Made by a program: the position numbers and the translations under genes. The notes beneath the pieces were generated by a model. It saw only the letters and a list, made by a program, of their open reading frames with translations. It was not told the origin of the DNA and did no database searches. 15,620 nucleotides of DNA from a virus. Its lineage: Duplodnaviria; Heunggongvirae; Uroviricota; Caudoviricetes. Positions 1-15,620 of the stretch are shown here, in pieces. How positions within the stretch are numbered: position 1 is the first letter of the stretch; each line of letters begins with the position of its first letter. The DNA lies in IMG/VR virus record IMGVR_UViG_2711768073_000008; one strand, given 5' to 3'.

Positions 1-377
1 TTGCCGTCACTGCATAAACCATCGGGAGAGCAGGCGGTACGCATACTTTCGTCGCGATAGATGATCGGTGATTCAGTAACATTCACGCCGGAAGTGAACT
101 CAAACAGGGCTCTGGCGTCGTTCTCGTACTGTTTTCCCCAGGCCAGCGCTTTAGCGTTAACTTCCGGAGCCACACCGGTGCAAACCTCAGCAAGCAGGGT
201 GTGGAAGTAGGACATTTTCATGTCAGGCCACTTTTTTCCGGAGCGGGGTTTTGCTATTACGTTATGAACTTCTGAAGCTGTGATGACGCCGAGCCGTAAT
301 TTGTGCCACGCATCATCCCCCTGTTCGACAGCTCTCACGTCGATCCCGGTACGCTGCAGGATAATGTCCGGTGTCAT
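1..377 (-). CDS. exo: Lambda exonuclease (Red-alpha), N-terminal part; gene continues beyond the window's left edge
   Basis: Minus-strand translation from the ATG at 375-377 reads [37 protein letters not shown]..., matching lambda Exo as recalled. Start overlaps the bet stop (ATGA). Partial ORF, so absent from the ORF track. Confidence 0.85.
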
Positions 378-1159
378 GCTGCCACCTTCTGCTCTGCGGC
401 TTTCTGTTTCAGGAATCCAAGAGCTTTCACTGCTTCGGCCTGTGTCAGTTCTGACGATGCGCGAATGTCGCGGCGAAATATCTGGGAACAGAGCGGCAAT
501 AAGTCGTCATCCCATGTTTTATCCAGGGCGATCAGCAGAGTGTTAATCTCCTGCATGGTTTCATCGTTTACCGGAGTGATGTCGCGTTCCGGCTGGCGTT
601 CTGCAGTGTATGCGGTATTTTCGACAATGCGCTCGGCTTCATCCTTGTCATAGATACCAGCAAATCCGAAGGCCAGGCGGGCACACTGAATCATGGCTTT
701 ATGCCGTAACATCCGTTTGGGATGCGACTGCCACGGCCCCGTGATTTCCCTGCCTTCGCGAGTTTTGAATGGTTCGCGGCGGCATTCATCCATCCATTCG
801 GTAACGCAGATCGGATGATTACGGTCCTTGCGGTAAATACGGCATGTGCAGGATTCGTTGTCCTGTTCAAAGTCCATGCCATCAAACTGCTGGTTTTCAT
901 TGATGATGCGGGACCAGCCATCAACGCCCACTACCGGAACGATGCCATTCTGCTTATCAGGAAAGGCGTAAATTTCTTTCGTCCACGGATTAAGGCCGTA
1001 CTGGTTGGCAACGATCAGTAATGCGATGAACTGCGCATCGCTGGCATCACCTTTAAATGCCGTCTGGCGAAGAGTGGTGATCAGTTCCTGTGGGTCGACA
1101 GAATCCATGCCGACGCGTTCAGCCAGCTTCCCTGCCAGCGTTGCGAGTGCTGTACTCAT
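374..1159 (-). CDS. bet: Bet (Red-beta) single-strand annealing recombinase, 261 aa
   Basis: ORF track 261 aa, [66 protein letters not shown]..., recognised as lambda Bet. Gene order exo-bet-gam as in lambda. Confidence 0.95.
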
Positions 1160-1548
1160 CCGTTTTATACCTCTGAATCAATATCAACCTGGTGGTGAGC
1201 AATGGTTTCAACCATGTACCGGATGTGTTCTGCCATGCGCTCCTGAAACTCAACATCGTCATCAAACGCACGGGTAATGGCTTTTTTGCTGGCCCCGTGG
1301 CGTTGCAAATGATCGATGCATAGCGATTCAAACAGGTGCTGGGGCAGGCCTTTTTCCATGTCGTCTGCCAGTTCTGCCTCTTTCTCTTCACGGGCGATCT
1401 GCTGGTAGTGACGCGCCCAGCTCTGAGCCTCAAGACGATCCTGAATGTAATAAGCGTTCATGGCCGAACTCCTGAAATAGCTGTGAAAATATCGCCCGCG
1501 AAATGCCGGGCTGATTAGGAAAACAGGAAAGGAGGTTAGTGAATGCTT
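1020..1548. repeat. Direct repeat copy 1 (~525 bp): gam plus the first 46 codons of bet
   Basis: Manual comparison with 2204..2727 at a fixed offset of 1184 bp: only two substitutions over the first ~440 bp, then about eight differences including one 1-bp indel in the last ~90 bp. Confidence 0.9.
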
Positions 1549-1581
1549 TTGCTTGATCTCAGTTTCAGTATTAATATCCAT
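1165..1581 (-). CDS. gam: Gam, RecBCD inhibitor (138-aa long form; internal start at 1461 gives the 98-aa GamS)
   Basis: ORF track 138 aa, [71 protein letters not shown]..., recognised as lambda Gam. Confidence 0.9.
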
Positions 1582-1679
1582 TTTTTATAAGCGTCGACGG
1601 CCTCACGAAACATCTTTTCATCGCCAATAAAAGTGGCAATAGTGAATTTTGTCTGGATAGCCATAAGTTTTTTATCCAT
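1536..1679 (-). CDS. kil: Kil (host cell-division inhibitor), 47 aa
   Basis: Internal Met of the 89-aa track ORF gives [47 protein letters not shown], close to lambda Kil as recalled. GGAG Shine-Dalgarno upstream on the minus strand (plus 1688-1691 ctcc). Confidence 0.7.
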
Positions 1680-1812
1680 TTTTGGGGACTCCTGGCTGAT
1701 TAAGTATGTCGATAAGGCGTTTCCATCCGTCACGTAATTTACGGGTGATTCGTTCAAGTAAAGATTCGGAAGGGCAGCCAGCAACAGGCCACCCTGCAAT
1801 GGCATATTGCAT
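1672..1812 (-). CDS. cIII: CIII (FtsH/HflB inhibitor), 46-aa version
   Basis: Minus-strand translation from the ATG at 1810-1812 gives [46 protein letters not shown] then stop; AAGGAG SD upstream. Too short for the ORF track. Overlaps the kil start by 8 nt. Confidence 0.75.
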   Translation of the reverse strand: MQYAIAGWPVAGCPSESLLERITRKLRDGWKRLIDILNQPGVPKNG

Positions 1813-1835
1813 GGTGTGCTCCTTATTTATACATA

Positions 1836-1860
1836 ACGAAAAACGCCTCGAGTGAAGCGT
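1836..1860 (-). terminator. Possible intrinsic terminator (tL-type) between the chimeric ORF and cIII
   Basis: Plus strand acgcctcgagtgaagcgt (1843-1860) forms a ~7-bp stem with one G-U pair when read on the minus strand, followed there by a U-run (plus-strand A-run 1839-1843). Confidence 0.3.
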
Positions 1861-1884
1861 AATTGGTATGCGGTAACGCCGCGC

Positions 1885-2343
1885 TCAGGCGGCTTTGATA
1901 GTCATATCATCTGGATCAAATATTCCTGATGTATCGATATCGGTAATTCTTATTCCTTCGCTACCATCCATTGGAGGCCATCCTTCCTGACCATTTCCAT
2001 CATTCCAGTCGAACTCACACACAACACCATATGCATTTAAGTCGCTTGAAATTGCTATAAGCAGAGCATGTTGCGCCAGCATGATTAATACAGCATTTAA
2101 TACAGAGCCGTGTTTATTGAGTCGGTATTCAGAGTCTGACCAGAAATTATTAATCTGGTGAAGTTTTTCCTCTGTCATTACGTCATGGTCGATTTCAATT
2201 TCAAATGCGATGAACTGCGCATCGCTGGCATCACCTTTAAATGCCGTCTGGCGAAGAGTGGTGATCAGTTCCTGTGGGTCGACAGAATCCATGCCGACAC
2301 GTTCAGCCAGCTTCCCAGCCAGCGTTGCGAGTGCTGTACTCAT
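1885..2343 (-). CDS. Chimeric ORF: Bet N-terminal 46 aa fused in frame to 106 aa of an unrelated gene (sits in the position of ea10 upstream of cIII); possibly a rearrangement product or pseudogene
   Basis: ORF track 152 aa; first 46 aa identical to Bet (MSTALATL...DAQFIA), then FEIEIDHDVMTEEKLHQINNFWSDSEYRLNKHGSVLNAV... The junction coincides with the repeat boundary at 2204. An internal ATG at 2178 could start a 97-aa product instead. Confidence 0.5.
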   Translation of the reverse strand: MSTALATLAGKLAERVGMDSVDPQELITTLRQTAFKGDASDAQFIAFEIEIDHDVMTEEKLHQINNFWSDSEYRLNKHGSVLNAVLIMLAQHALLIAISSDLNAYGVVCEFDWNDGNGQEGWPPMDGSEGIRITDIDTSGIFDPDDMTIKAA

Positions 2344-2727
2344 CCGTTTTATACCTCTGAATCAATATCAACCTGGTGGTGAGCAATGGTTTCAACCATG
2401 TACCGGATGTGTTCTGCCATGCGCTCCTGAAACTCAACATCGTCATCAAACGCACGGGTAATGGCTTTTTTGCTGGCCCCGTGGCGTTGCAAATGATCGA
2501 TGCATAGCGATTCAAACAGGTGCTGGGGCAGGCCTTTTTCCATGTCGTCTGCCAGTTCTGCCTCTTTCTCTTCACGGGCGATCTGCTGGTAGTGACGCGC
2601 CCAGCTCTGAGCCTCAAGACGATCCTGAATGTAATAAGCGTTCATGGCTGAACTCCTGAAAATGGCTGTGAAAAAATCGCCCGCGGAATGCCAGGCTGAT
2701 TCGGAAAACAGGAAAGGGGATTAGTGA
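2204..2727. repeat. Direct repeat copy 2 (~525 bp): second gam plus bet 5' end, flanked by unrelated sequence
   Basis: Same alignment as copy 1. The left boundary falls exactly after bet codon 46; the right end degrades just past the GamS start region. Confidence 0.9.
2349..2645 (-). CDS. gam: Second copy of Gam, short form only (GamS, 98 aa)
   Basis: ORF track 98 aa, identical to residues 41-138 of the first Gam. AGGAG SD upstream; the long-form N-terminal extension is disrupted by substitutions and an indel in this copy. Confidence 0.8.
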
Positions 2728-2927
2728 TTCAGACCGTTGCCGCGTCCGTCGAGAAAAACTTCCACGAGCAAATCACGGGTATAAGTGCGCTCGATGCCGC
2801 GATGCAGATAAAGCCGTCCGCGTAAATTAGCTGATGCAGTCCAGGTACCATCTTTGTGTTTGACCAGCATTCCTGGCATGACCGCACCTCGATTAACGGT
2901 CTGCGTTCCGTAATGTTGATGAACCAT
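2721..2927 (-). CDS. Hypothetical 68-aa protein in the pL operon
   Basis: ORF track 68 aa (MVHQHYGTQTVNRGAVMPGMLVKHKDGTW...). Good SD (caggag, ~5 nt spacing) upstream on the minus strand; same orientation as the leftward operon. No family recognised. Confidence 0.45.
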   Translation of the reverse strand: MVHQHYGTQTVNRGAVMPGMLVKHKDGTWTASANLRGRLYLHRGIERTYTRDLLVEVFLDGRGNGLNH

Positions 2928-3219
2928 AAAAACTCCTGCCCGTAAGCTGGGCTGCTGAACAAATAAGGGGTTGCGCAGTATCTGGCGGTGGATGGCCGCC
3001 GGTTGTCATAACTAAGTCGCCTCGTTGAAGCGACTGAGGTATGAAGTGTTGAGTTGATTTCAGCTGGTCACACCGACGTTCACGCGTCCGCTTCACCCCT
3101 CGCACTCCCCGGAGCCTGCTGAAATTCAAGCTGCGGATCTAAGCGGTCATCGCAACGGTGAATCAGGTGATTGCCGTATCGTTGTGTTGTTGCGATGAAT
3201 TCATTTAAAACTATAGTTG

Positions 3220-3290
3220 TTTTATCATCAACAACAAAAGTTGTTTTGTTGGTTGTTTTAGATATAACTGGTTGTATTTAGGATGGATTT
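3220..3290 (-). promoter_or_regulatory. Putative OL/pL operator-promoter region
   Basis: TGGTTGT at 3250-3256 and 3269-3275 plus a degenerate ACAACAA near 3230, the same half-site seen between the repressor and cro genes. AT-rich non-coding DNA at the position expected for pL. Confidence 0.35.
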
Positions 3291-3368: not shown

Positions 3369-3396
3369 CAAAAGAAAACCCGGCACGACGGCCGGG
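3369..3396 (-). terminator. Intrinsic terminator downstream of the 287-aa cargo gene
   Basis: Perfect 6-bp GC stem cccggc (3379-3384) / gccggg (3391-3396) with a 6-nt loop; on the minus strand it is followed by a U-rich tract (plus-strand caaaagaaaa 3369-3378). Lies 4 nt past the ORF stop. Confidence 0.6.
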
Positions 3397-3400
3397 GAAA

Positions 3401-4264
3401 TCATTTCGCATCTACAATAAATAACCTGTTTATCTGGCCTTTTTTAACAGTAGCCTTTGCGGTTATAGTGAATACTGCAGATGGATCACCTTTGGTTGAT
3501 ATATATGCACTAAGAGCTCTAATATACGGGTTATTCTTCTTTCCTGCAGCTGGATCGCTAATTTCAGCAGTGATTCTCTTTTTTGAGTCATCACCATCTA
3601 AAATTATTTTAGCTGTCATATTTTGTGCATCAAATTCTGTAAGAAAAGCACGATACTCACGAAGACCGAGAACTTCATCATCATCAAGCCTATCAATTTC
3701 AGCTTTATCTCTCTCGTTAACTTTTAGAAGGCAGCCGTCAACATTTGTTGCAACACTTATCTGATCGCAAGTATTACCAATAGGTGATACTGCCTGCCTT
3801 ACAGAGGGGCGAAGCTCTACAGCCATTCGGTCAATCAAAGAGATCAACTTATCAATGGTTCCAGCATCCTTGTTTCCTAGTGCCTCTATGGCCTTTTCAA
3901 GTGACTGCTGCAAAGCTTTCATTTCATCTTTCTTGTTAGAATTTCTCGCAAAAATATATTGTAGTATTGCGCCAAGTATAGTTGCGGCGATCCCCGAGAA
4001 CAACTGGTTCTGAGTGGCGAAGTTAAGAACTGCTTCAAGAGTAAAGCAGTTAGCTTTTGCTTCGCGTGCGTAAACCTTAACTTCCTGATAATTAATGTAT
4101 TTACTATATTTTTGTGTAACAGAGAAAGAAGCTGCTGTTGAGAGAACTTTAGAAAAACCCTTTAGGGATTCTCCTAGGCAGTTCAAATCTATTTCATGAT
4201 TTAAAGCATCTTTTCCGTCATACCTAAGAGAGATTTTTATATCCTGTAAAGCGTCACAATCCAT
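3401..4264 (-). CDS. Uncharacterised 287-aa protein, AT-rich cargo gene in the position lambda uses for rexAB
   Basis: ORF track 287 aa with no recognisable family or catalytic motif. Central hydrophobic stretch [20 protein letters not shown]. Co-directional with and directly downstream of the repressor gene; ends in its own terminator. Confidence 0.75.
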
Positions 4265-4330
4265 AAATCGCTCTCGTCTAATTCTAATTAAATTTACTAT
4301 CCCCTAAACGACTCATCAGCACAGTACTGA

Positions 4331-5020
4331 TTATCCATGTTTCCTGTACGTCTGGGGCATGCTCCCAATAACCTTACCGAAGATGAACACCCGGTTCATC
4401 TCGTCTTTCTCGATCGGGTCCCACGGTGAGTAGCTCTTGTTATCAGAGATAACCAGCAGCTTATCCTTCATCATTTGCAGGCGCTTTACATGGGCGGTGT
4501 CGTCGTACAGAAACGCATAGATGCCATCACCGTCGAAAGATTTAACCGTGATATCAACGAACAGCAGATCACCTGGTTCGATCGTTCCTGACATGCTGTC
4601 ACCACGCACGTTAATGATGCGGATATTTTCTGCCTTCCTACCATCGAACATGTGACGAGCATCGTCAAACGAGTACTCAACCGAGCGTAGAACTTCTACA
4701 AACTCACGGTTGATGACTCCCGGCCCGGCACTCACTTCTATATCAAGAACGTCAATCTTAAAGTATTTGGAATGGCTGACAGTTGATTGTATTGGTTGCA
4801 CTGTACTGTCTGACATATTTCCAACGCCAGAAGATAACCATTCTGCGCGCACACCCAAAGCGTTCGCGATCTCCACGATTTTAGTTGTTTGGTTAGCTTT
4901 CCCTGTTTCGATTTTCTGAATAGCAGCTTGGCTAACCCCGACCAAATCCCCAAGCGCCTTTTGTGTAAGGCCTCGCGCTAATCTGGCTTCTTTAAGTCTT
5001 TCTGAGAGTGTTGTTTTCAT
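4331..5020 (-). CDS. CI-like prophage repressor (N-terminal HTH, C-terminal S24 LexA-like autopeptidase), 229 aa from the ATG at 5018-5020
   Basis: MKTTLSERLKEARLARGLTQKALGDLVGVSQAAIQKIETGKANQ (HTH); candidate Ala-Gly cleavage site in EVSAGPG; GDSM serine and AHVKRL lysine motifs. The track ORF (to 5086) has a 22-aa N-terminal extension that is probably not translated; no SD precedes the ATG, so the transcript may be leaderless. Confidence 0.85.
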   Translation of the reverse strand: MKTTLSERLKEARLARGLTQKALGDLVGVSQAAIQKIETGKANQTTKIVEIANALGVRAEWLSSGVGNMSDSTVQPIQSTVSHSKYFKIDVLDIEVSAGPGVINREFVEVLRSVEYSFDDARHMFDGRKAENIRIINVRGDSMSGTIEPGDLLFVDITVKSFDGDGIYAFLYDDTAHVKRLQMMKDKLLVISDNKSYSPWDPIEKDEMNRVFIFGKVIGSMPQTYRKHG

Positions 5021-5124
5021 AGTCCAAATGTACAACCAAGGTTTTATTTCATCAAACGAAAATGGTTGTTGGCTAAAAACAACCATAGTTTTAATCTTGA
5101 TTCAAATTAACCACGGAGGTTGTT
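5021..5124. promoter_or_regulatory. OR-type operator/divergent promoter region between repressor and cro-like genes
   Basis: Repeated half-sites: ACAACCA 5032-5038, TGGTTGT 5063-5069, ACAACCAT 5079-5086, GGTTGTT 5116-5122. Contains a perfect 9-7-9 palindrome atggttgtt-ggctaaa-aacaaccat (5062-5086). Confidence 0.6.
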
Positions 5125-5355
5125 ATGAACCCAGCTATCAAAACAGCGATCAATATCGTTGGTTCACAAAAGAAACTGGGCGCTGCCTGCGAAGTTTCAC
5201 AGCAGGCCGTCTATAAGTGGCTTCACAACAAAGCAAAGGTATCCCCTGAACATGTCGGCAGCATTGTTACGGCTACTGGTGGAATAGTGAAGGCATACCA
5301 GATTCGCCCGGATCTTCCGAAGTTGTTTCCACATACCGAAAAGAACGCAGCTTAA
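5125..5355 (+). CDS. Cro-like HTH regulator (76 aa)
   Basis: ORF track 76 aa, MNPAIKTAINIVGSQKKLGAACEVSQQAVYKWLH (HTH). GGAGG SD 6 nt upstream; divergent from the repressor. Confidence 0.8.
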   Translation: MNPAIKTAINIVGSQKKLGAACEVSQQAVYKWLHNKAKVSPEHVGSIVTATGGIVKAYQIRPDLPKLFPHTEKNAA

Positions 5356-8216: not shown

Positions 8217-9719
8217 TTAAATTGCATCTGCAAACTCTGGGGTTTTTCGCTCAGGTATAATTGATGAGTTGTTGTTGTCACTTTTTTTATTTTCATGATT
8301 ACGAATAGCCAATGACTCATTAAAGTCTTTTGCGACTGCTGTCTCAATAAATTCAATTTCTGAATCAGAGTGTTTTTTAAGAGCTTCTTTGATCTCATCC
8401 AGAGTAACATAGAAAAACTCTTTTCTACGATTTACAAGATTGACTCTCTTTTTATCGAAGACATCATGTAGTTTTTTTTCTAATGATGGAGCGTCCTCCG
8501 AATAAATCATAGCATGCACATCAAAAATAAATGGAACAGATGCATCACCGAGCTCATTTACACGGTCTTGCGGATCAAGACGTCGTGTCATGCCTATTTT
8601 ATAAACATTCTCCCCAAAAGAACCTATGTTCGAAATAATATAAACATGACCTTGTTTGGTTTGTTGTGCCATGGATAATGCTCTTTGATGCTTTGATTCA
8701 GCCTGCGACAAACTCTGTTCTAGTTCGGCAATGCGATTTTCGAGGCGCTGCTTCATGTCACCAGTAACTTTTTCCATTTCCTTTCTTGCAGCTTCAATTG
8801 CTTTTTTATAACGGCGCTCTTCTGCCTCTGCGTCTTGCATGGCCTTTTCTATTTCTCGTTGTGCACGCTCCTCCTCTCTCATTTGTGCCCTTATTTCTGC
8901 CTGTTCTTCTTTTTCTTTCTGTTTTTGCTCACGATATTCATGGGTAAGCCACAATTCCTCAAGTTTTTTATTGAGGTATTTAGTGTTTATATATATGTGA
9001 TTTTGCTCGTTTAGTTTATTTATGGCCTCAAATGCCTTTGTGATGCGTTCTTCCATTTTAGTGATATTTTTCCACGTGCAATTGCTAATTGCAGCATCAC
9101 ATTCATTATTAAATGCTCTAGTAGTTAACCTGATATTTCTGTCTGTCATTTTTTTACCCTCTGCTCGAGAGCCTTCAACAGTCCATTGGGTTGTACAATA
9201 TACTGCGCCAGAGTGGGTTTTATCCCGCAGCATTAATTTCTGTTCATCCCTGATGGATTTTATTTTGTTTTTAAATTGCTCTGAATCTTCAAAATTAAAA
9301 TGAGGTTCGTAAAATCCTAGCTCGGCTAGCTCAACATCTTCTGAATAAATAGAAATTTGCCTTACTAGTTTATCATATATTTCTTTCTTCTCTTTATAAG
9401 TTCTTCTTAGCTCTTGGATTTGTTTATTGATACCATCCATTTTTTCAATGGTGTTTGTTAGTTCATTATTGGCATTTTCTTTTACTTTTTGGGATTCTTC
9501 TTTTATTATGGAGCATTCTTGCTCTGTTTTCTCAATAAGCTTCTTACATTCTTCTTCTACATTAAAATAATCTGCAAAGCGAGATTTGTATTCTTCATTT
9601 TTTTGATTGCTATCACTTAATTCTAATTGTATTTTTTTGATGCGTTTGATTGCAGCTATATAAAGAACAAGAACAACCAATAAAAATATGATTGCAAGTA
9701 ATAGTGGAGTTTGAGTCAT
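8217..9719 (-). CDS. 500-aa cargo protein: N-terminal TM anchor, long coiled coil, C-terminal GIY-YIG/T5orf172 (MUG113)-like domain; candidate anti-phage defence or abortive-infection effector
   Basis: ORF track 500 aa. N-terminus MTQTPLLLAIIFLLVVLVLYIAAIKRIKK is hydrophobic; an E/K/Q/R-rich heptad-like region runs to ~aa 350; the C-terminal GHVYIISNIGSFGENVYKIGMTRRLDPQDRVNELGDASVPFIFDVHA...NRRKEFFYVTLDEIKEAL fits the GIY...YIG/T5orf172 pattern (encoded ~8380-8651). AT-rich, opposite strand to flanking ren and ybcN; SD aagga 8 nt before the ATG. Confidence 0.85.
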   Translation of the reverse strand: MTQTPLLLAIIFLLVVLVLYIAAIKRIKKIQLELSDSNQKNEEYKSRFADYFNVEEECKKLIEKTEQECSIIKEESQKVKENANNELTNTIEKMDGINKQIQELRRTYKEKKEIYDKLVRQISIYSEDVELAELGFYEPHFNFEDSEQFKNKIKSIRDEQKLMLRDKTHSGAVYCTTQWTVEGSRAEGKKMTDRNIRLTTRAFNNECDAAISNCTWKNITKMEERITKAFEAINKLNEQNHIYINTKYLNKKLEELWLTHEYREQKQKEKEEQAEIRAQMREEERAQREIEKAMQDAEAEERRYKKAIEAARKEMEKVTGDMKQRLENRIAELEQSLSQAESKHQRALSMAQQTKQGHVYIISNIGSFGENVYKIGMTRRLDPQDRVNELGDASVPFIFDVHAMIYSEDAPSLEKKLHDVFDKKRVNLVNRRKEFFYVTLDEIKEALKKHSDSEIEFIETAVAKDFNESLAIRNHENKKSDNNNSSIIPERKTPEFADAI

Positions 9720-11549: not shown

Positions 11550-11634
11550 AGTCAGAGATAACAATCAACTAATACTGTTTTGTTGATTTTTGCTTGTAAT
11601 TGGCGTTCTGGTCTGATTTTTGTGGAGTAAGTTG

Positions 11635-12018
11635 ATGCGTGATATTCAGATGGTTCTTGAGCGTTGGGGAGCGTGGGCGGCTAATAATCATGAAGATGTG
11701 ACCTGGTCGTCCATTGCCGCCGGTTTTAAGGGATTAATTACTTCAAAAGTAAAATCTCGCCCGCAATGTTGTGACGATGACGCGATGATTATTTGCGGGT
11801 GCATGGCCCGTCTGAAAAAGAACAACAGCGATTTGCACGATTTATTAGTAGATTATTATGTAGTCGGTATGACATTCATGTCACTGGCAGGTAAGCATTG
11901 CTGCTCTGATGGTTATATCGGGAAAAGGTTACAGAAGGCTGAGGGCATAATTGAAGGGATGTTAATGGCATTAGATATCCGGTTAGAGATGGATATCGTT
12001 GTTAATAACTCTAATTAA
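11635..12018 (+). CDS. quuD: Q-family late-gene antiterminator (DLP12 QuuD-like), 127 aa from the ATG at 11635
   Basis: [60 protein letters not shown]... GGAG SD 8 nt upstream. The track ORF begins at an upstream TTG. Confidence 0.8.
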
Positions 12019-12206: not shown

Positions 12207-13289
12207 TTAGAACTGGTAAACCATACCTACAGCAACGATATCATCGGTAGCAACGCCAGATGCTTTCGTGAAATCGCTCTTATCAATCAGGTTGATTTTG
12301 TAATCAACAAAAGTGGACATATTTTTGTTGAAGTAATAGGTTGCACCTACATCAATATATTCAACCAGGTCCTGATCACCCCACGCACCCAAGTCTTTTC
12401 CTTTAGATTGCAGGTAAGCAACGGACGGACGCAGACCGAAGTCGAACTGATATTGTGCAACTACTTCGAAGTTTTGTGCTTTGTTGGCAATATGGTTATT
12501 ACCAAAAACAGTCATGTTCTGGGTTTCAGAATAGGTGGTAGCCAGATAGATGTTGTTCGCATCATATTTCAGACCAGCTGCCCATACTTCAGCATTTTGA
12601 CCAGATGCATTCAGGCTGTTGTTACCGTAGATAACCTGATTATTAGTGCGGTCAGATTTAGCATAGGTTGCACCTACACCGAATCCTTCATACTCATAAG
12701 TAGTGGAGAAACCGAAACCATCACCATTAGCTTCAGTTACGTCAGTGCGGTCATTTTTACCCTGATACTGAGCAGCAAAGTTCAGACCATCAACCAGACC
12801 AAAGAAGTCGTTGTTACGATAAGTTGCAACACCAGTGGTGCGACCAGTCATGAACACATCTGTTTGGGTCCAGGTATCGCCACCGAATTCTGGCAGAACG
12901 TCAGTCCACGCACCGATGTCATATGCTACACCGTAGTTACGGCCGTAATCGATTGAGCCGTAGTCCCCGAATTTCAGGCCTGCAAATGCAAGACGGGTTT
13001 TGTCTTTGGAGGAGCCTTGAGATTCAGCGCGGTTGCCTTTGAATTCATATTCCCACTGACCGAAACCAGTCAGTTGATCGTTGATTTGGGTTTCACCTTT
13101 GAAGCCAAGACGGGCATAAGTAGTATCACCATCATCTGCATCATTAGAGGAGAAGTAGTGCTTGGCATTAACTTTCCCATATAGATCCAGCTTGTTACTG
13201 TCTTTATTATAAATTTCAGCTGCCTGAGCAGACATCGCCATCAGTACTGATGCAGCTACAGCAGAAATTGCCACTGTTAATTTTTTCAT
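12207..13289 (-). CDS. nmpC: Outer-membrane general porin, OmpC/OmpF/PhoE family (NmpC/Lc-like), 360 aa, intact
   Basis: ORF track 360 aa; signal peptide [29 protein letters not shown]; porin hallmarks (GxxYxF-rich beta strands, C-terminal ...VAVGMVYQF). Sits between Q and the lysis genes as in DLP12; no IS interruption visible. Confidence 0.9.
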
Positions 13290-15080: not shown

Positions 15081-15374
15081 TTATTGTGAGCAATACACAC
15101 GCGCTTCCAGCGGAGTATAAATGCCTAAAGTAATAAAACCGAGAAATCCATTTACGAATGTTTGCTGGGTTTCTGTTTTAACAACATTTTCTGCGCCGCC
15201 ACAAATTTTGGCTGCATCAACAGTTTTCTCCTGTCCAATTCCCGAAACGAAGAAATGATGGGTGATGGTTTCCTTTGGTGTTACTGCTGTCGGTTTGTTT
15301 CCAACAGTAAACGTCTGTTGAGCACATCCTGTAATAAGCATTGCCAGAGCGGCAGAAAACAACATTTTTTTCAT
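15081..15374 (-). CDS. borD: Bor-family lipoprotein (serum resistance), 97 aa from the ATG at 15372-15374
   Basis: MKKMLFSAALAMLITGCAQQTFTVGNKPTAVTPKETITHHFFVSGIGQEKTVDAAKICGGAENVVK... with lipobox ITGC. The track ORF has a 16-aa upstream extension. Confidence 0.85.
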   Translation of the reverse strand: MKKMLFSAALAMLITGCAQQTFTVGNKPTAVTPKETITHHFFVSGIGQEKTVDAAKICGGAENVVKTETQQTFVNGFLGFITLGIYTPLEARVYCSQ

Positions 15375-15620
15375 CTTATTATCCTGCATTGTTAAAAACG
15401 GCAGAATCCTATGTGACAACAATTAAACGATAGTTAAATGGATTGATGAAAATTAAAACTATATAGGTGGATGCTCAGCCTATTGGAGGAGGGGGGGCAC
15501 TCAGAATCCTGTGGAATGAAATAAACCGCTCTATCTGTCCATTACCCTTTTAGCTGCGCTGTATCGTCGCCGTATTCCCGCATTAACCATGACCGTAGCC
15601 CGACGGGGAATTCCTTCTGC

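Follow-up and report, generated by a model that had tools for sequence, protein, structure and literature searches.

In phage lambda the rexA and rexB genes are expressed in the lysogen, and the slot behind the repressor gene of lambdoid phages is the textbook site of lysogen-expressed exclusion genes. The question raised here is which gene fills that slot, and with what likely function, in a lambdoid prophage of which a stretch of 15,620 nucleotides was analysed (IMG/VR record IMGVR_UViG_2711768073_000008; the whole stretch is called the window below). The slot is filled by a single gene for a protein of 287 amino acids (AA). We find that this gene is a member of a catalogued, uncharacterised protein family in a known hotspot, and that there are good grounds, though no proof, for regarding its product as a candidate new defence protein.

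Position of the gene behind the repressor

The features of the window that define the locus are as follows.

3401..4264, minus strand: open reading frame (ORF) of 287 AA with an ATG start, homologue of phi80 protein 40A (DUF7946 plus DUF7947)
4331..5086, minus strand: cI-type repressor gene (HTH_3 plus Peptidase_S24), listed as an ORF of 251 AA
4265..4330, minus strand: gap of 66 nucleotides (nt) from the repressor gene to the 287-AA ORF, with GAGAG 7 nt upstream of the ATG
3369..3396, minus strand: intrinsic-terminator-like hairpin and T-run that closes the repressor operon, part of the conserved backbone
3209..3242, no strand: operator-like palindrome with GTTGTT/AACAAC half-sites, found by an inverted-repeat search, candidate left operator (OL)
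5062..5086, no strand: perfect operator-like palindrome ATGGTTGTT-N7-AACAACCAT, between the repressor and cro-like genes
5125..5355, divergent from the repressor gene: cro-like gene

The preliminary description of this locus placed a 287-AA ORF in the rexAB position, in the same direction as the repressor gene, and both the coordinates and the operator-like palindromes bear this out. The two genes are on the same strand with the ORF downstream, and the presence of the same GTTGTT/AACAAC half-sites at 3209-3242 and 5062-5086 supports the placement of the ORF between the repressor gene and OL. Judged by their sequence, the palindromes at 5062-5086 and 3209-3242 would fit the roles of right operator (OR) and OL, respectively. 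The candidate OL region lies upstream of kil-gam-bet and shares 95% identity with the backbone in many prophages. The 251-AA repressor ORF as listed overlaps the palindrome at 5062-5086, and the identical RefSeq protein, WP_000858975.1, has 229 AA, which puts the repressor start at 5020; this start is likely the better one.

A scan of the minus strand of the gap (4265..4330) for terminator-like sites found none, and no promoter belonging to the 287-AA ORF scored above the scan threshold in these 66 nt. By analogy with rexAB in lambda, the ORF would share a transcript with the repressor gene in the lysogen, and it is probably expressed there. Its end is marked by the hairpin CCCGGC-CGTCGT-GCCGGG (3396..3379), which has six all-G/C pairs, is followed by TTTTCTTTTG and begins 4 nt past the stop codon. 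The predicted folding energy is -12.1 kcal/mol (z = -2.0), and 6 of 200 shuffles fold equally well. The hairpin and U-tract reported at this place in the preliminary description are thus present, but they belong to the conserved backbone of the prophage and not to the foreign segment (see below). The same description called the gene compositionally foreign and more AT-rich than its neighbours; indeed, its G+C content is 38.4%, against 45.9% for the repressor gene, 50-51% for kil and gam, and 45.4% for the whole window.

A conserved family that includes phi80 protein 40A

The protein had been considered to carry no recognisable domain, which does not hold: it matches Pfam DUF7946 (PF25678) over residues 11-191 (E = 3.8e-55; 187.2 bits with a cut-off of 27; profile positions 1-183 of 183) and Pfam DUF7947 over residues 201-287 (E = 1.4e-18; 67.1 bits with a cut-off of 27). 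It also matches PHROG 5147, to which no function is assigned there, from end to end (positions 1-287 of 287; E = 1.5e-178). Nor is it a new kind of slot occupant. In a tblastn search of 50,697 phage records it is 62% identical to phi80 protein 40A over 285 AA (E = 2e-114), and phi80 gene 40A is located between cI and the annotated OL operators and left promoter (pL), in the cI orientation, with a hairpin terminator 4 nt past its stop codon and none between cI and 40A. This level of identity and the shared slot make the window ORF equivalent to a gene already contained in the phi80 early-region sequence of 1988 (record X13065), where a frameshift divides the gene into 40A and 40B. The phi80 protein is listed as UniProt P14817 and as PHI80_46 (AFV29182.1), and as ECDH10B_RS06815 in strain DH10B. 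We conclude that the ORF is very probably accessory cargo of the repressor operon belonging to the phi80 40A family. Resemblance to RexA and RexB had been denied from the start, and hhalign agrees, giving a probability of 0.2% with each.

A family profile made from 24 homologues matches 496 clusters at 50% identity in a search space of 1.84 billion cluster representatives. Nearly all of them are 270-300 AA long; the family proteins stand alone, and in distant relatives no fused or extra domain was found, the two-domain layout being always the same. The exact 287-AA protein is present on at least 1000 contigs. In the comparison of the ORF with its Erwinia orthologue, the synonymous divergence (pS) is 0.76, which is saturated, and the nonsynonymous divergence (pN) is 0.086. 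Purifying selection and the 496 matching clusters indicate that the ORF is a genuine gene. An accidental ORF or a decaying pseudogene could be suspected in an AT-rich region, where long ORFs are less constrained, and for a gene of which no function is known, but the conservation just described, the many contigs that carry the exact protein and the confident model of its C-terminal domain already refute this explanation, to which we give practically no credit.

Across sources, family members are named "hypothetical", "DUF7946 domain-containing" or "Protein 40A". Two further labels were considered and dropped. The 'acetate kinase superfamily domain' of the phi80 GenBank record is absent from the Pfam and NCBIfam results, and the NCBIfam 'LAPAL motif' matches the N-terminal part only, with 26 bits, below the cut-off of 60. 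The Tai system of phi80 (orf63/64) is at a locus separate from 40A (PMC11364771).

Predicted anatomy of the protein

Three regions of the protein are distinguished, with the following positions in the window.

3692..4234, minus strand: DUF7946 domain, residues 11-191 (Pfam and model)
3404..3664, minus strand: DUF7947 domain, residues 201-287, modelled as an oligonucleotide/oligosaccharide-binding (OB)-like beta-barrel
3947..4003, minus strand: hydrophobic, membrane-like helix, residues 88-106 (hydropathy)

The AlphaFold2 model of the 287-AA protein has a mean predicted local distance difference test score (pLDDT) of 75.8. The short N-terminal strand of DUF7946 bears a motif, RYDGxDAxxH, that is conserved in the alignment. 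In the model residues 27-50 then form a long helix. Further on come the hydrophobic helix and three amphipathic helices that extend to residue 158, so that DUF7946 ends in a helical bundle, and a beta domain that is modelled with confidence (residues 168-286). Residues 56-84 (window 4013-4099) are among the most conserved in close homologues, in the alignment of which V62, A66, A71, C73 and F74 are invariant, yet their pLDDT is below 50; this segment could be an oligomer interface or a conformational switch beside the hydrophobic helix. In an alignment of 106 diverse members, conservation among polar residues is found at Y15, H23, S33, D237, N245, Y247 and K270; P161, G163 and C166 are likewise conserved, and no known catalytic motif is evident.

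The preliminary description mentioned a hydrophobic central segment, which we locate at residues 88-106. This segment has a Kyte-Doolittle mean of 1.85, an Eisenberg mean hydrophobicity of 0.72 and a low hydrophobic moment (0.19), with four Lys or Arg residues on its C-terminal flank and none on its N-terminal flank; the two hydrophobicity means and the charge bias speak for a membrane helix. It may anchor the protein in the membrane, insert there conditionally or be buried in the core of the fold. The bulk of the protein is predicted to be cytoplasmic, and it was found to have neither a signal peptide nor a lipobox.

These properties bear on the possibility that the gene is a lysogenic-conversion factor for host fitness, encoding a membrane-associated protein that alters the envelope, stress tolerance or colonisation. 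Such a role would agree with the lysogen-expressed position of the gene and the membrane-like helix of its product, with the presence of a porin gene and bor, which are similar cargo genes, in the same window, and with the occurrence of the gene in host-associated bacteria of many genera. It agrees poorly with a mostly cytoplasmic protein devoid of export signals, which resembles no known virulence or envelope factor, and the other known or candidate occupants of the slot are anti-phage genes. We consider a host-fitness role quite unlikely.

An optional cassette between the repressor gene and the operon terminator

The boundaries of the foreign segment were defined by comparison with prophages that carry both flanks.

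3397..4331, no strand: cargo cassette of 935 bp, absent from prophages with both flanks (blastn breakpoints)

The breakpoints, 3396/3397 and 4331/4332, were obtained against loci L015, L016, L004, L005 and L006, and they coincide with the top of the terminator stem and with the repressor stop codon. The terminator lies inside the conserved flank and therefore belongs to the prophage backbone, and it is kept in an empty-slot prophage with one G-U-compatible change. The empty slot consists of 122 nt of unrelated spacer.

Beside the identical repressor WP_000858975.1, strains TCM3e1 and VTB97585v have an empty slot, strain 2009C_3689 has two small genes (87 and 147 AA) and strain FDAARGOS_144 has the gene described here. 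The pair of small genes is seen at locus L014 (2700-3419). Related phage isolates carry other cassettes within the same flanks. In phage Perceval (L004 3606-5156) the slot encodes a protein of 168 AA, annotated as transmembrane, and one of 340 AA, and in phage PhiR68_2 (L005 3599-5054) proteins of 149 and 341 AA; the proteins of about 340 AA of these two phages have no family match, the two pairs are unrelated, and the 287-AA protein shows no homology to the Perceval occupant PERCE_43. In phage PhiR30_1 (L006 2018-3372) the occupants are the PADLOC candidate PDC-M63A/B (DUF6932 and a 310-AA protein), and in lambda rexA-rexB occupy the equivalent slot. Among 5426 complete Escherichia coli genomes, 1520 carry the repressor gene at a coverage of at least 80%; we counted 758 empty junctions, 198 cassettes of the 87 plus 147-AA type and 77 of the 40A type, two of which (H7 and H33) have an IS1 insertion. 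The cargo of the slot varies across related prophages, and the gene is not a conserved core gene of all related phages; the slot is most often empty. The gene is an optional, self-contained, AT-rich cargo of 935 bp, inserted between the cI stop codon and the conserved terminator of the operon.

Lambda has a further promoter for this transcript region, pRE, the promoter for repressor establishment. The gene could accordingly be read from an equivalent transcript during establishment, or early after infection, and have a function in the phage life cycle that only appears to be lysogenic; its retention in phi80 and in the phi80 remnants of laboratory strains could be taken in the same sense. We find this explanation very unlikely, as the gene is dispensable in most prophages of the same backbone, the IS1 insertions in H7 and H33 interrupt it within otherwise intact loci, and it is transferred horizontally in the manner of a cassette.

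A repressor-linked but repressor-indifferent distribution

In a small survey of the genomic context, with about 15 distinct contexts, the gene is located behind a cI-type repressor gene in about 11 of the 15. A repressor gene of the cI type, encoding a helix-turn-helix (HTH) or HTH-S24 protein, comes directly before it on the same strand in phi80, three Morganella prophages, Vitreoscilla, an Enterobacter metagenome-assembled genome (MAG; HTH-only repressor), Neisseria and three Mannheimia loci. In Erwinia, too, the gene follows the repressor gene in the same direction, but with a Tlde1-domain gene (L017 4188-4721) and a 71-AA ORF between them. The arrangement is not seen in a Helicobacter prophage, in a Burkholderiaceae MAG or on a metagenome contig where the gene is beside a transposase gene; a Rahnella contig is unclear. 

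The identity of the adjacent repressor appears to be indifferent. In E. coli one and the same cassette protein, WP_000340376.1, adjoins three different repressors and two different cro partners, and in Morganella 100% identical 40A-type copies follow repressors with no more than 25% identity between them. When phi80, Morganella, Vitreoscilla and the window are compared, identity is 49-62% for the 40A proteins and 23-28% for the adjacent repressors, and the G+C content of the 40A-type gene is below that of its neighbours in all four lineages examined. These observations show that the cassette is exchanged among prophages that differ in immunity type and reside in different bacterial orders, and that it almost always lands directly behind the repressor gene. 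Such a repressor-linked, repressor-indifferent distribution is expected of cargo that is selected for expression from the lysogen maintenance transcript.

The same distribution also calls to mind an accessory of lysogeny control, a protein that would act with the S24-type repressor or on SOS and induction (repressor cleavage, the induction threshold or establishment) and not against other phages; we regard this as the main rival explanation. It would account for the place behind cI-type HTH/S24 repressors being kept from Enterobacterales to Pasteurellales and Neisseriales, where the repressors are unrelated in sequence; the modelled OB-like domain could bind single-stranded DNA, the SOS signal, and the protein matches no validated defence family. 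However, the gene is usually missing beside an identical repressor, with identical operators and cro-like gene, and the 758 empty slots compared with 77 occupied ones indicate that it is not needed for that immunity system. The occurrence of the same protein beside repressors only 25% identical argues against a specific repressor partner, the homologues of the Helicobacter prophage, the Burkholderiaceae MAG and the metagenome contig are away from repressor genes, and a foreign G+C content combined with sharp boundaries is what cargo genes typically show. On balance a role in lysogeny control seems rather unlikely to us.

A possible anti-phage function

The function that we favour for the 287-AA protein is a prophage-encoded anti-phage activity of a single protein, either superinfection exclusion or abortive infection. 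This proposal is drawn from context and anatomy only, and we rate its chances as a little below even. Several observations argue for it: the history of the slot (Rex) and its other candidate occupants (PDC-M63); the SIR2 gene that follows the DUF7946 gene in the prophage of Vitreoscilla sp. C1 (L007 7661-9274) and corresponds to PADLOC PDC-S25 (E = 2e-142); a weak partial match of the N-terminal part to the PADLOC candidate PDC-S42 (residues 9-127 with profile positions 4-113 of 302; E = 1.5e-4; 19.3 bits); and the foreign composition and presence/absence polymorphism of the gene. To these may be added a second AT-rich, single-gene defence in the window.

8217-9719, minus strand: PD-Lambda-1 (SNIPE), 500 AA, 35% G+C (PADLOC E = 9e-198, full-length; DUF4041 plus T5orf172/GIY-YIG)

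PD-Lambda-1 is the membrane-bound nuclease SNIPE (bioRxiv 10.1101/2025.11.03.685801), and its gene is cargo between the replication genes and the nin region of the window.

If the protein is anti-phage, its action can be imagined as follows. Helix 88-106 would anchor the protein in the inner membrane or insert into it, and by the positive-inside rule the helical and OB-like C-terminal part would be in the cytoplasm, where it might recognise a nucleic acid or a protein of the infecting phage. The membrane would be the site of the ensuing response, which would result in exclusion or abortive infection, an outcome that would be Rex-like without common ancestry with RexA or RexB. We hold this specific membrane-sensor mechanism to be unlikely as it stands. 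More tentatively than the anti-phage function itself, yet with better prospects than the detailed mechanism, we propose that DUF7946/DUF7947 proteins could be a novel anti-phage system made of one protein, without homology to any validated system, in which a membrane-inserting helix is joined to an OB-like sensor and which prophages from Enterobacterales to Pasteurellales and Neisseriales would express as part of the repressor operon.

Several points weigh against an anti-phage role. No significant match to the 287-AA protein was found among the validated defence families of PADLOC-DB v2.0.0, and full-text literature searches, covering 8 million papers, with DUF7946, DUF7947, PDC-S42, the accession numbers and phi80 40A returned no relevant paper. 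A sequence-profile search of the PDB gave nothing below E = 0.02, the matches at that level being short coiled segments, a Foldseek comparison of the model with the PDB gave no significant structural match, and no catalytic or pore-forming domain was recognised in the protein. The commonest state of the slot is empty, so that any benefit of the gene must be conditional. A role in lysogeny control would explain the near-obligate link with cI-type repressors just as well. The position of the hydrophobic helix is kept family-wide, but its Kyte-Doolittle mean reaches 1.6, the threshold used for a membrane-spanning helix, in only 49 of 105 members, and the helix could be the buried core of a helical bundle; besides, an N-out topology would need export of the 87-residue N-terminal domain without a signal peptide.

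Consequences for laboratory strains

The phi80 cI-40A segment is intact and 100% identical in DH5alpha, DH10B (NC_010473.1 1358581-1360294, with gene ECDH10B_RS06815), TOP10, NEB 5-alpha, NEB 10-beta, JM83 and XL10-Gold. The presence of an intact phi80 copy makes the family directly testable in these standard strains, for which suitable phages and knock-out tools are at hand, and the empty, other-cassette and occupied alleles that exist beside the same repressor are natural, ready-made controls. If the anti-phage reading is correct, phi80 40A would be a determinant of phage resistance that has gone unnoticed in the commonest cloning hosts, which could explain differences in phage plating among K-12 derivatives with phi80dlacZ remnants, and the family is a new one for bacterial immunity. 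If the protein acts in lysogeny control instead, it represents a new accessory layer for S24-type repressors. In either case one protein family repeatedly fills the repressor-adjacent slot in distant bacteria and beside unrelated repressors, and any 40A phenotype would bear on phage work in those cloning hosts.

Other genes of the window

From left to right, the window carries bet, gam and kil (minus strand), the cI-type repressor gene and the divergent cro-like gene, followed rightward by a YdaT-like gene, the O and P replication genes, nin-region genes, Q, a porin gene, lysis genes and bor. The genes of the pL operon are as follows.

374-1159, minus strand: bet
1165-1581, minus strand: gam
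1536-1805, minus strand: lambda-Kil-like ORF
1885-2343, minus strand: chimeric ORF whose first 46 residues are identical to Bet and whose remainder is a DUF2528 domain
2349-2645, minus strand: second gam

This operon (374-2645, minus strand) contains a tandem duplication with an insertion. Directly downstream of the putative OL/pL is a 78-AA ORF (2893-3129, minus strand) with a TTG start and an arginine-rich N-terminus (RLRGVRGVKRTRERR), which may, to judge from its sequence, encode an N-type antiterminator; it gave no Pfam match and is unannotated in RefSeq relatives. The late region contains cargo as well: an OmpC/NmpC-type porin gene (12207-13289, minus strand) directly after the Q antiterminator gene (11620-12018), and the gene for the Bor lipoprotein (15081-15422), a further classical cargo gene.

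Comparison with known systems

Like the 287-AA ORF, lambda rexAB is downstream of cI, in the same orientation and upstream of OL/pL, and both are optional AT-rich cargo with a hydrophobic, possibly membrane-acting component. The window cassette differs in having one gene instead of two; its product, with a single hydrophobic segment, contrasts with RexB, a membrane protein of four helices, and RexA is without the OB-like domain modelled in the ORF protein. The PDC-M63A/B genes of the related phage PhiR30_1 occupy the identical slot with the same flanks, but their products show no similarity to the ORF protein, and PDC-M63 and PDC-S42 are PADLOC candidates, that is, themselves unvalidated families.

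SNIPE and the ORF protein are not homologous, the ORF protein has no nuclease or other recognisable effector domain, and its hydrophobic helix is central while that of SNIPE is N-terminal. They are nevertheless alike in that both are single-protein, AT-rich prophage cargo, and each combines a single membrane-like helix with a cytoplasmic domain for which binding of nucleic acid or protein is predicted.

The closest parallel is phi80 40A. Although the phi80 repressor is only 24% identical to that of the window and of another immunity type, and although 136 nt separate 40A from the repressor gene in phi80 compared with 66 nt in the window, the two genes share both Pfam domains, the slot from cI to OL/pL, the orientation of cI, a hairpin terminator 4 nt past the stop codon and a G+C content below that of their neighbours.

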